Part shown: positions 3,600 through 5,930 of the stretch, one piece after another
How the letters are laid out: every line of letters starts with the position of its first letter
Numbering within the stretch: the first letter of the stretch is position 1
DNA from: an uncultured Sphingobacteriales bacterium
Lineage (GTDB): Bacteria; Bacteroidota; Bacteroidia; CAILMK01; CAYYUA01
Direction: 5' to 3'
Length of the DNA stretch: 64,000 bases
NCBI GenBank assembly: GCA_964561545.1
Contig: CAZLQF010000006.1
Coordinates: 177-64,176 of the forward strand
Translations under genes and position numbers: made by a program
Notes under the pieces: model-generated
Databases searched by the model: none
The model's input: the letters and a program-made list of their open reading frames with translations, nothing else
What the model was told of the DNA's origin: nothing

Positions 3600-3748
3600 A
3601 AAAAGTTATTTAATTGGTTTTTTAGATCTCTATAGATTATTGAAAATCAGAAAATAATGCTAATTTTTCCCGAGTTTGACTGGCAAATTTACATTAAGGC
3701 AGTCTATTTAACAACCTCAAGAGGACTTATCTATGCGTTAAAGCTTAG

Positions 3749-3756
3749 CAAATGTA
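3749..3756 (-). promoter_or_regulatory. Candidate Bacteroidota sigma70 -7 box (TACATTTG) for secDF; second candidate TAAATTTG at 3684-3691
   Basis: Matches the TAnnTTTG consensus upstream of secDF. Confidence 0.5.
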
Positions 3757-3970
3757 AATTTCTATGAAAATGTTTGAGCAGAATAAAAGTGTTAATGTTG
3801 GTATCCCTATAAGCTTAATCAAGCTTAGTAGGAAAATTTGGCAAACTTTTTTGCGTCAGCCTTAAATAGTACAACAAGGCCAATTGCCTGAAAACCATTA
3901 ACTAAAACTTGATACTTAAACAATGAGACTCGAAAGGATTAAATGATTGTTGTCTTGAGTTTAAAGAGGG

Positions 3971-4765
3971 TCAGTTTTGAAATCTCAAACCGAAATTAAA
4001 GGTTCTGCCCGCTCCCTGGTTTTTACCTGCTGTAAAATCAGTATAAAGTAGTTCAACCTCTAAAGAATTGGTGAGCTGGTATTTAACACCAAGACCATTT
4101 TGGTTATAGGCTGATGACCATAAATCATCACCCCAGGTAGGATTAAACTCGGTCATGGCATAAGCCGACCAGCGATCGAAGAAAAAGTAGGAAAAGAAGG
4201 CTTTTACCGGTGTTCGAAATGCACTTGTGGCATCAGTCAATTCATCTTCTCCCATGCGCCAATAAGCATCCAATTCCCCAAACAACTGAAAATCACTACC
4301 AATGTTATACACAAAAAAATTTTCAACCCAAAACTCATATTGGCCAGCTGCCAAATAAGGGCGGTCATGATCTATTCCTTTTTGGTCAGAGGCGATGGGT
4401 ATGAAAAAACCTGCTTCTATGGTATATTGATCCCAGCCTTCAAATGGCTGCCATTTAATCTTTGGCAATACAGCATTGAAGGCATGATGGGCATTTTGGT
4501 TTTTTTGAAATTCTAATATTTCTGCCGGTAGATTTTCCTTTTTATGGTTAAGCACTGCTTTGTAAAAGACATCTGCGCCAATGTTGACCCTGTTATCTAA
4601 TCCGTAAAGTATTTCCAGGCTACCCGTGTAAAAAGTGGACCTCTGGTCAAATTCCTCAATTTCCCAATTCCGATCAAACTTTTGTGTTTGGGTGTAAATG
4701 TTTTGGAAGAGTTTTATTTCAACACTTCCCCGATCAAGGATATACCCGGTTGCTTGCCGGATCAA
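3971..4765 (-). CDS. Outer-membrane beta-barrel-like ORF without a signal peptide; probably the C-terminal domain of a frameshift fusion with the upstream DUF547 gene
   Basis: Amphipathic strands (SLEILYGLDNRVNIGADVFY, GLGVKYQLTNSLEVELLY); C-terminal TFNFGLRFQN resembles a beta-signal; weak TTG start; frame stays open upstream to the A9 run at 4805-4813. Confidence 0.7.
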   Translation of the reverse strand: MIRQATGYILDRGSVEIKLFQNIYTQTQKFDRNWEIEEFDQRSTFYTGSLEILYGLDNRVNIGADVFYKAVLNHKKENLPAEILEFQKNQNAHHAFNAVLPKIKWQPFEGWDQYTIEAGFFIPIASDQKGIDHDRPYLAAGQYEFWVENFFVYNIGSDFQLFGELDAYWRMGEDELTDATSAFRTPVKAFFSYFFFDRWSAYAMTEFNPTWGDDLWSSAYNQNGLGVKYQLTNSLEVELLYTDFTAGKNQGAGRTFNFGLRFQN

Positions 4766-4800
4766 ATCAGAGTTATTAGAAGAAGAGGTAGCCTTATTTT

Positions 4801-5529
4801 TTACTTTTTTTTTATTTCATTAAGCGACCAATCGTACTCATAATAGCTAATTTGCATATCAGTGGGTAATGGGCTCTTTCGGTGCTCATTTAAATATTCA
4901 AGGAGATTGTTGGCTTCATTTAAAAAATCTTGCCGGTACCATTTAAATATTTTAGAGATTTCAACCATCCTATCTCGAGACTTAACCCTGATAAAATTCT
5001 GATCACCCAATGCAAGTTCCGTTTGCTGAGCTAATTGTTGATCCAAATTTTTAGGCTTAAAAGCCCCGGATTTTAGTGGAGGGCAACCATTAGCAGCACA
5101 AACGAGGGCAAAATGCAACCTGGAATCGCTGTAATTTTGATAAAGCGTTCCTTTTTCAATATTATCTAATGTCATAGATTTACCCGCAACGGTATGTTCA
5201 ATACCATCAAAAAAACCTTTAATATCATTTGGAGATTCCACAGGATAATGGTTGATAATGGAATTAATGGTTAATATATTGTAAGCATTAAGGTAAAAAG
5301 CTTTTTTCGTATTGTTATGGACTTGGGGTAGTTGAGCTTCTTCAATGTAATTGACCAATCGATTAAGTTGCTTAGGGTTGGTTTTAATGGCTGAATAGTT
5401 TACCTTTCCATCTATCACGTATTTTTCAAAAAAATGATCTGCTTCTTTGAAAAAATCATCTGATTGGGCATTGGCTGGTAAAATCAGCACAACCAATAAA
5501 CCAACCAACAATGAGGTTACAATTTTCAT
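4801..5529 (-). CDS. DUF547 domain protein with signal peptide
   Basis: AFYLNAYN, RLHFALVCAANGCPPL, SKIFKWYRQDF, YDWSLN motifs; hydrophobic N-terminus ending ANA-Q. Confidence 0.92.
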   Translation of the reverse strand: MKIVTSLLVGLLVVLILPANAQSDDFFKEADHFFEKYVIDGKVNYSAIKTNPKQLNRLVNYIEEAQLPQVHNNTKKAFYLNAYNILTINSIINHYPVESPNDIKGFFDGIEHTVAGKSMTLDNIEKGTLYQNYSDSRLHFALVCAANGCPPLKSGAFKPKNLDQQLAQQTELALGDQNFIRVKSRDRMVEISKIFKWYRQDFLNEANNLLEYLNEHRKSPLPTDMQISYYEYDWSLNEIKKK

Positions 5530-5645
5530 AGTAATTGATTTGTTTGCAATCCAATTTTACAAATACCTTGCTAATTTGAAATTTTTGTAGCATAAATTTT
5601 GTCGGTTAGCAAACTAAAAACCTTGATTACTGTAACGTAAGCAAT

Positions 5646-5930
5646 ATGGCATCGAACCAACAACACAACAAGCATCGAAAACCAAGTAAGCCCAAAGAGG
5701 ACCCGGATATAGAGGATGTGGAAGCAGAAGACGTAGATGGCAATGCAGCAGAAGACCCATTCAAACAATTTAACCATGGAAGGAACTTTCAATTCCGGCT
5801 ATCGGGATGTTTAGGTGGCCTAATAGCATTAGTTATAGCCGCAGTTTTGTTTTTTGTATTCCTGCCATTGGGCATTGTCTTAATTATTGGGGTCATGGGC
5901 TATTATAGCTGGAAGTTGAGGAGGCGGTAA
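5646..5930 (+). CDS. Small hypothetical membrane protein
   Basis: ATG start, charged N-terminus, C-terminal hydrophobic hairpin and basic tail. Confidence 0.7.
   Translation: MASNQQHNKHRKPSKPKEDPDIEDVEAEDVDGNAAEDPFKQFNHGRNFQFRLSGCLGGLIALVIAAVLFFVFLPLGIVLIIGVMGYYSWKLRRR

Follow-up and report, generated by a model that had tools for sequence, protein, structure and literature searches.

A candidate recoding site at a poly-A tract between a secreted DUF547 domain and an outer-membrane β-barrel

The DNA analyzed here, referred to as the window, is a 64,000-nucleotide stretch from an uncultured Sphingobacteriales bacterium (assembly GCA_964561545.1, contig CAZLQF010000006.1, positions 177 to 64,176). 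At positions 3971..5529 the minus strand of the window carries two abutting open reading frames (ORFs), the first encoding a secreted protein with a DUF547 domain and the second a predicted outer-membrane β-barrel that has no signal peptide of its own. A run of nine A residues (A9) sits directly before the stop codon of the first ORF, and a shift of one base at this run would join the two frames. The parts of the locus, in window coordinates, are the following.

3971..5529, minus strand: the candidate recoded unit as a whole, comprising a 242-amino acid (aa) zero-frame DUF547 product and a conceptual 519-aa DUF547-linker-barrel transframe product (fused homologues are 514-523 aa)
5529..4801, minus strand: DUF547 ORF in the zero frame, 242 aa plus TAA; Pfam PF04784
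5467..5529, minus strand: N-terminal signal peptide of the DUF547 ORF, MKIVTSLLVGLLVVLILPANA followed by Q, judged by eye from the translation
4817..4822, minus strand: two stops, TAA TGA, that close the -1 frame immediately 5' of the A-run
4805..4813, minus strand: A9 tract as read in the mRNA (T9 on the plus strand), candidate site of RNA polymerase slippage
4804..4810, minus strand: A_AAA_AAG, a heptamer in phase with the zero frame, at which the ribosome might shift by -1
4801..4803, minus strand: zero-frame TAA stop directly 3' of the shift site
4766..4804, minus strand: linker of 13 codons in the -1 frame, VKNKATSSSNNSD, without a start codon and variable between strains
3971..4765, minus strand: predicted 12-stranded outer-membrane β-barrel domain, 264 aa plus stop, without its own signal peptide

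The DUF547 ORF matches PF04784 over residues 70-171 (E 1.3e-23, 83.8 bits against a cut-off of 27) and ends in GAA ATA AAA AAA AAG TAA. From AAT (4816) onward the -1 frame is open; it reads NKKKVKNKATSSSNNSD-LIRQATGY and continues to the stop at 3973..3971. Because TAA TGA (4822..4817) close the -1 frame, the barrel frame cannot be entered any further upstream. The product of a one-base shift would consist of 242 + 13 + 264 = 519 aa. Across its first 50 codons the barrel frame contains a single ATG, GTG, or TTG, namely the TTG at 4765, which is not followed by a hydrophobic signal peptide. The linker peptide ATSSSNNSDLIR is encoded upstream of this TTG, the only possible start in that stretch. 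The signal peptide of the DUF547 ORF is the sole export signal in the 3971..5529 unit. Over 3600-5900, the frequency of promoter-like and terminator-like sites did not exceed that in shuffled sequences. The layout described in the initial annotation of this DNA is borne out in nearly every respect: A_AAA_AAG lies in the correct phase within A9 directly before the stop (4810..4804, with TAA at 4803..4801), TAA TGA shut the -1 frame, which is open from one codon before the A-run into the 264-aa ORF, the conceptual fusion is of the length estimated (~519 aa), and within its first 50 codons the barrel ORF has only a TTG start and no signal peptide. The linker it described in the -1 frame is present, at 13 codons rather than the 12 given there.

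An AlphaFold2 model of the 264-aa product, calculated from a 117-sequence alignment, was all-β with a predicted local distance difference test score (pLDDT) of 94 and a predicted template modeling score (pTM) of 0.88. A Foldseek search with this model retrieved 283 PDB chains at E <= 0.001. The top match was 4rl8, a COG4313 outer membrane channel (E 3.9e-12, template modeling scores 0.69/0.72), and further resemblances were to FapF and to the translocator domains of EstA and NalP, which are 12-stranded barrels. On the strength of the model we are confident that the downstream ORF encodes a 12-stranded outer-membrane β-barrel, in agreement with the barrel-like character first proposed for it. 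No Pfam or NCBIfam family matched the barrel ORF, and NCBIfam gave no family for DUF547, barrel, or fused homologue. The C terminus of the barrel is FNFGLRFQN, with RFQR or RYLR in relatives; the last strand is conserved and the final residue is non-aromatic. By the C-terminal β-signal rule, outer-membrane barrels end in an aromatic residue. The barrel must cross the inner membrane, and its own export signal is absent; therefore, fusion to the DUF547 signal peptide would be required. A model of a fused protein from the same family (pLDDT 89.7, pTM 0.53) has two confident domains and a disordered segment, residues 244-256, at the position occupied in the window by the tract and linker.

The DUF547 domain itself has two nearly invariant cysteines in the motif H-F-x-L-x-C-x4-C-P-P, as seen in an alignment of fused proteins (A6; residues 140-151 of the homologue L004). 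The window copy of the motif is HFALVCAANGCPP. The conserved pair may constitute a redox or metal site.

A trivial explanation for the split would be an assembly or sequencing error, the true tract being A10 and the gene an ordinary fusion. Homopolymers are error-prone, and the genome is a draft of 90 contigs. Nevertheless, Logan contigs from three samples of one study, one of which may be the source of the window assembly, span 4500-5100 with no differences and no gaps. A 214-nt contig from a different study, derived from a relative (X5) with 92% identity, matches 4732-4945 with 18 differences and no gaps. Of its 14 listed differences none falls in 4798-4814 and eight fall in the adjoining linker (4766-4800), and both reading frames are open in this variant. 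Two further contigs from the samples of the first study carry a junction of the type seen in G001, a genome from another genus of the window's family, again with no gaps. Contigs of four runs contained no insertions or deletions (indels) at the tract, and the A-tract is kept across two genera, that of the window and that of G001 and G003, with lengths that differ between them. The genome has 33 A/T runs of nine or more, of which 11 lie unbroken inside long open frames, arguing that there is no systematic homopolymer error in the assembly. The same split is moreover found in seven other assemblies, one of them a complete chromosome. Because independent contigs and a diverged relative all keep A9, the tract appears genuine, and we consider an assembly error very unlikely indeed.

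The arrangement exceeds a chance coincidence: among the runs examined, the window site was the only one at which two long frames on the same strand abut and the downstream frame is without a start. A second A9 at abutting same-strand frames, C8:39395-39403 (L268 1096-1104), was set aside as an ordinary overlap without a frameshift: a 919-aa D-Ala-D-Ala-ligase-like ORF ends there in ...GSQKKMKVGARS, and the ORF after it starts with a GTG of its own and encodes an N-terminal membrane helix. The homopolymer census also flagged C15:35482-35490, where an A9 on the plus strand falls between two long minus-strand frames that differ in phase and lie 50 nt apart.

Relatives were collected by three overlapping scans, which returned 469 and 458 matches in genome_contigs and 147 in metagenome contigs, the best 80 of each being kept. 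After removal of duplicates 187 loci were classified, 188 with the window, nine assignments being corrected by eye. DUF547 and the barrel are fused in a single ORF in 66 of the 188 loci. In a further 60 they are encoded by two genes, the barrel having its own Met and signal peptide, and in 49 a barrel with a signal peptide stands alone. Eight loci, the window among them, are split by a frameshift at a poly-A tract; the remainder are truncated or unclear (four loci) or a pseudogene (one locus). Both full-length fusions and split pairs that keep the poly-A tract, the homologues that the initial annotation had proposed searching for, are therefore present (66 and eight of 188, the window included). 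Barrels with their own signal peptide, which it had named as a possible counter-finding, do occur in the 60 two-gene loci, whereas the eight split loci lack one and retain the poly-A tract.

Within the 61 related genomes searched, the barrel is present in eight, including that of the window. DUF547 and the barrel form one ORF of 514-523 aa in G002, from the same family, and in G025, from another family, while G001 and G003 are split just like the window. None of the 80 metagenome loci kept is a frameshift split, and a metagenome scan with alignment A1 gave no confirmed relative. A word-based search for longer proteins found one fused protein only. A scan of genome_contigs for the DNA pattern of the junction gave 13 matches, 12 of which were unrelated as judged by tblastn, leaving only L026 as relevant.

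In G004, which also belongs to the window's family (loci L006/L009/L010), the locus has decayed: the match to the barrel consists of three pieces and contains TAA/TAG stops, and DUF547 terminates early. The DUF547-barrel gene is thus dispensable in at least one close lineage.

The break in all eight split loci is at a poly-A tract a few codons from the conserved D-W-x-L-N end of the DUF547 domain. The junctions, with the tract and the shift needed to enter the barrel frame, are as follows.

Window: ATA AAA AAA AAG TAA, A9, shift -1
L002 (G001): TTA AAA AAA AAG TAA, A9, shift -1
L003 (G003): AAT AAA AAA AAA AGT AAA TAA, A10, shift +1 or -2
L031: ATA AAA AAA AAG TAG, A9, shift -1
L083: GAT AAA AAA AAA GTC CGG TAA, A9, shift -1
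L026, L041, and L043: GAA AAA AAG TAA, A7, shift -1

The heptamer A_AAA_AAG is followed by an immediate stop in six of the eight (window, L002, L026, L031, L041, and L043). No signal peptide or conserved start was found in the barrel frame of any of the eight. L002 and L031 have no ATG, GTG, or TTG at all in the first 50-56 codons of that frame, and in the other six the start candidates are scattered and non-conserved. Several public sources contain barrels of split-type relatives (proteins P0003-P0008) called as 206-259 aa from an arbitrary internal Met, without a signal peptide. A systematic mis-annotation of the DUF547-barrel family by gene callers is likely.

In a FastTree phylogeny of 186 barrels the window, L002, and L003 form a clade with support of 100, inside which the fused L004 is nested. 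L041 and L043 group together with support of 100, and L031 and L083 each stand separately. L026 was left out of the tree, its barrel being cut by the end of the locus, and groups by identity with L041 and L043 (79% in the barrel). On this tree the split state requires five changes, at least three of them forced by well-supported branches, indicating that the split loci belong to at least three separate clades. The locus of L026 is 8 kb long with 36% G+C and is labeled as a Hyphobacterium metagenome-assembled genome (MAG); the closest relatives of its gene pair are in Cytophagales MAGs, and the label may not fit.

Such splits could also have arisen by unprogrammed frameshift mutation in a once-fused gene, leaving the barrel dead or dying, or sustained by incidental low-level slippage (a "savior indel"). 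The intact fusion in G002, the stop-ridden locus of G004, which shows that the gene is dispensable in some lineages, and the mutation-prone nature of poly-A linkers are all in keeping with this explanation. The conservation of the barrel frame is not. In the window clade (window, L002, and L003) synonymous sites are saturated, and the barrel frames remain open over ~260 codons at 52-61% identity. A protein from another source (P0002), 264 aa in length, is 92% identical to the window barrel. The 264-codon frame is therefore open and conserved in the window, P0002, G001, and G003 across saturated synonymous divergence. A gene no longer in use would be expected to resemble the decayed copy of G004. 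In the A7 group (L026, L041, and L043) the downstream ORF is under selection, because its ratio of nonsynonymous to synonymous substitution rates (dN/dS) is ~0.05: the barrels of L041 and L043 gave 0.046 at a synonymous divergence (dS) of 1.25, with a higher value of 0.145 for the DUF547 part, and those of L041 and L026 gave 0.073. Furthermore, the linker next to the shift site varies but the site itself does not, and the arrangement recurs in at least three clades. We consider an unprogrammed mutation improbable.

Phase variation, in which the tract changes length during DNA replication so that the fused state is ON and the split state OFF, with the assemblies capturing OFF, is a related alternative. 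Homopolymers are classic tracts for slipped-strand mispairing, and the gene encodes a surface or envelope protein. Relatives vary in both the length and the offset of the tract (A9, A9, A10, and an in-frame A10 in L094 and L113), and since about two-thirds of random lengths would be out of frame, a collection of mostly OFF states is not improbable. On the other side, the tract has the same length, with no gaps, in three samples, in a second relative that shares two of those samples, and in a strain of 92% identity from another study; L026, L041, and L043 have kept their A7 tracts and hairpin over a dS above 1; and the lower dN/dS of the A7-group barrel (0.05) than of DUF547 (0.145) is unexpected for a domain that is mostly off. 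Phase variation is thus a poor candidate, to which we give about the same small weight as to unprogrammed mutation.

Several points weigh against programmed recoding. The offset is not constant: a -1 shift, which the initial annotation proposed looking for in homologues, is needed in seven of the eight, and the A10 of L003 (G003) needs +1 or -2. In-frame A10 tracts are present in the fused homologues L094 (LNKKKIVK...) and L113 (LNIKKKSEV...) at the same place as the split tracts. Together with the varied offsets, these imply that tract length drifts over evolution, which also fits phase variation or tolerated indels. Tract lengths were taken from contigs, which hide minority lengths. The 188 loci were selected by score, as the top matches of each scan, and are no random sample; the tree was built with FastTree only. 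Finally, when the genomes of the A9-type loci L031 and L083 were searched by BLAST with two Lys-tRNA queries, tRNA-Lys(UUU) alone was recovered, a weak negative in MAGs.

The identity of the shifting machine was considered from the sequence of the site, the RNA downstream of it, and the tRNA-Lys repertoire. According to the part of Atkins et al. (2016; PMC5009743) that deals with slippage and with dnaX, runs of nine A or T slip efficiently in vivo; a sole tRNA-Lys(UUU) is the condition that makes A_AAA_AAG shifty in E. coli; and the reliance of Thermus dnaX on slippage instead of frameshifting may stem from the presence of one tRNA for AAA and another for AAG. The window site, with A_AAA_AAG in phase, has the X_XXY_YYZ form of a heptamer for -1 programmed ribosomal frameshifting (PRF). 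It lacks two features of dnaX-type PRF, namely a stimulatory structure 5-9 nt downstream and tRNA-Lys(UUU) as the sole tRNA-Lys. The 70 nt after the site fold with -8.3 kcal/mol (z 0.09 against shuffles), consistent with the earlier remark that no strong stimulatory hairpin is present. The window genome encodes both tRNA-Lys(UUU) and tRNA-Lys(CUU), and G001, G002, and G004 likewise have a tRNA-Lys(CUU) gene. By the standards of transcriptional realignment, the window tract has the necessary homopolymer of ~9 or more A/T, as do L002, L003, L031, and L083, and it is conserved while its flanks vary.

The A7 group has a different composition. In these Cytophagales-type loci (L026 7416-7475, L041 1928-1987, and L043 1940-1999) the A7 heptamer is followed, 6 nt after AAG, by an 8-pair stem with a variable loop. 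The fold in L026 has an energy of -18 kcal/mol (z -3.0). The stem shows no compensatory changes among the three sequences. In the complete chromosome carrying L041, 32 of 37 tRNA hits could be typed, and the only tRNA-Lys is UUU; the five untyped hits are 82-88 nt, a class II length. BLAST with the two Lys-tRNA queries likewise found only tRNA-Lys(UUU) in the L043 and L026 genomes, again as weak negatives in MAGs. With the ingredients of the E. coli dnaX site, the A7 group looks like a textbook -1 PRF cassette. Because A7 is too short for efficient slippage, and given the stem and the sole tRNA-Lys(UUU) of the L041 chromosome, the family appears to use PRF somewhere. The idea that all A9-type genomes have tRNA-Lys(CUU) was not borne out, and the correlation rests on the window's family versus one complete genome.

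The same two-product gene might accordingly be decoded mainly by the ribosome in the window as well, by -1 PRF on A_AAA_AAG (or A_AAA_AAA) with the stop directly 3'. The in-phase heptamer with its immediate stop in six of eight split loci, the short A7 tracts with eight conserved pairs 6 nt after AAG in L026, L041, and L043, and the L041 chromosome with UUU as the only Lys tRNA among 32 of 37 typed all favor the ribosome. In the window itself the downstream structure is absent (z 0.09), no Shine-Dalgarno-like stretch is seen by eye upstream of the site, and a cognate tRNA-Lys(CUU) for AAG is encoded, as it is in G001, G002, and G004. The A10 of G003 needs +1 or -2, and the hairpin of the A7 group has no compensatory changes, albeit among three sequences only. 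A mainly ribosomal shift in the window is therefore rather unlikely in our judgment, while clearly more credible than phase variation or unprogrammed mutation. Slippage is favored over PRF in the window because of the A9, the lack of downstream structure, the presence of both tRNA-Lys species, and the offset of L003, which a -1 ribosomal shift cannot reach.

The explanation we prefer, at a confidence just short of calling it probable, is that the window contains one recoded gene with two products and that the shift most likely occurs by RNA polymerase slippage on A9/T9. Standard decoding would stop at TAA and yield the secreted DUF547 protein of 242 aa. Some expression events would instead involve a one-base change of frame at the A9G tract, through slippage of RNA polymerase on A9/T9 and addition of one A to the mRNA; in G003, the addition of two A's or the loss of one would restore the frame. 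Ribosomal frameshifting by -1 on A_AAA_AAG is a possible contributor. The shifted product, of 519 aa, would have the same signal peptide and DUF547 domain followed by the 13-residue linker and the 12-stranded barrel. The outcome would be free secreted DUF547 protein alongside a lower level of the same domain tethered to an outer-membrane barrel, a pairing that other lineages would achieve with two genes or have fixed as a fusion. That the shift occurs, how efficient it is, and which machine is responsible are points we infer from the sequence. The core idea of the initial annotation, one locus giving a soluble DUF547 protein and a barrel-anchored form, is supported by the fused homologues, the start-less split barrels, the barrel fold, and the A9 contigs.

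More tentatively, the family as a whole may possess an old and repeatedly used recoding switch that sets the ratio of free periplasmic to outer-membrane-tethered DUF547, operated by different machines in different lineages. Two such machines can be envisaged, at a similarly modest level of belief: -1 frameshifting by the ribosome where A7, a hairpin, and tRNA-Lys(UUU) as the sole tRNA-Lys coincide, and polymerase slippage where the tract is A9-A10 with no hairpin and two tRNA-Lys species. If true, this two-machine arrangement would be the second natural pair of mechanistic alternates after the dnaX genes of E. coli and Thermus, and the apparent lineage split between A7-plus-hairpin and A9-A10 offers a testable link between tRNA-Lys repertoire and recoding mechanism.

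Few well-supported chromosomal recoding sites lie outside mobile elements, dnaX, and prfB. The site described here would add a gene family that is widespread in Bacteroidota and neighboring phyla (469 relatives in one scan) and, if true, the first case in which recoding decides whether a secreted domain gains a membrane barrel via a shared signal peptide. We found no literature report of recoding in DUF547 or in this barrel family, although the supplementary cluster tables of the GeneTack study might list it; the main text of that study (PMC3711429) contains neither DUF547 nor "outer membrane," and term look-ups in PMC5009743 likewise gave no mention of the site. The existence of three natural states (fused, two genes, and frameshift-split) provides a built-in comparison for asking what use a constant proportion of free and tethered protein might have. 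There is also a practical consequence for annotation, in that gene callers emit the barrel as truncated, start-less "hypothetical proteins" of 206-264 aa.

The locus can be compared with several known systems. In Thermus thermophilus dnaX, as summarized in the relevant part of PMC5009743, a nine-A/T run in a chromosomal gene gives rise to two proteins through slippage that adds A's, and separate tRNA-Lys species serve AAA and AAG; the window likewise has A9, no hairpin, and both tRNA-Lys species. The polarity is reversed, since in Thermus the zero-frame product is long and slippage gives the short one, whereas in the window the zero frame is short and a shift would add a membrane domain. There is also no relation in gene family or cell compartment, and the window shift is a prediction from sequence. 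E. coli dnaX has the identical A_AAA_AAG in phase, and L026, L041, and L043 share with it a stem 6 nt downstream and, in the complete genome of L041, a sole tRNA-Lys(UUU). The window differs from E. coli dnaX in having no hairpin, in encoding tRNA-Lys(CUU), in showing no upstream Shine-Dalgarno-like element, and in that the shifted product is the longer one. In the two-ORF dnaX genes of the Chlorobi type, the long product needs a frame transition and tracts of 7-10 A are found among relatives, comparable with A7-A10 here; where the GeneTack study (PMC3711429) treats these tracts they are interpreted as programmed transcriptional realignment. The gene is of course a different one from DUF547-barrel.

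With regard to protein architecture, type Va autotransporters, FapF, and the COG4313 barrels resemble the predicted fusion in their order of signal peptide, N-terminal soluble domain, linker, and C-terminal 12-stranded barrel. Their sequence identity to the window barrel is only 10-12%, with no family match. The reading of the fusion as an autotransporter, with DUF547 as passenger and the barrel as translocator, was set aside, since 60 loci encode both parts as separate secreted proteins, a poor fit to the obligatory pair of type Va systems.

The closest functional analogy to the window locus is with Citrobacter rodentium tssM1 and Yersinia pseudotuberculosis tssM. As set out in the portion of PMC4256274 concerned with these genes, a poly-A tract of 11 A precedes a stop, and added A's restore the frame; for tssM1, truncated and full-length forms of the envelope protein are both made, and both forms and their ratio are needed. 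TssM is an inner-membrane component of the type VI secretion system, its tract is A11 versus A9, and its recoding was shown by experiment, whereas in the window the shift would append a barrel that relies on the upstream signal peptide.

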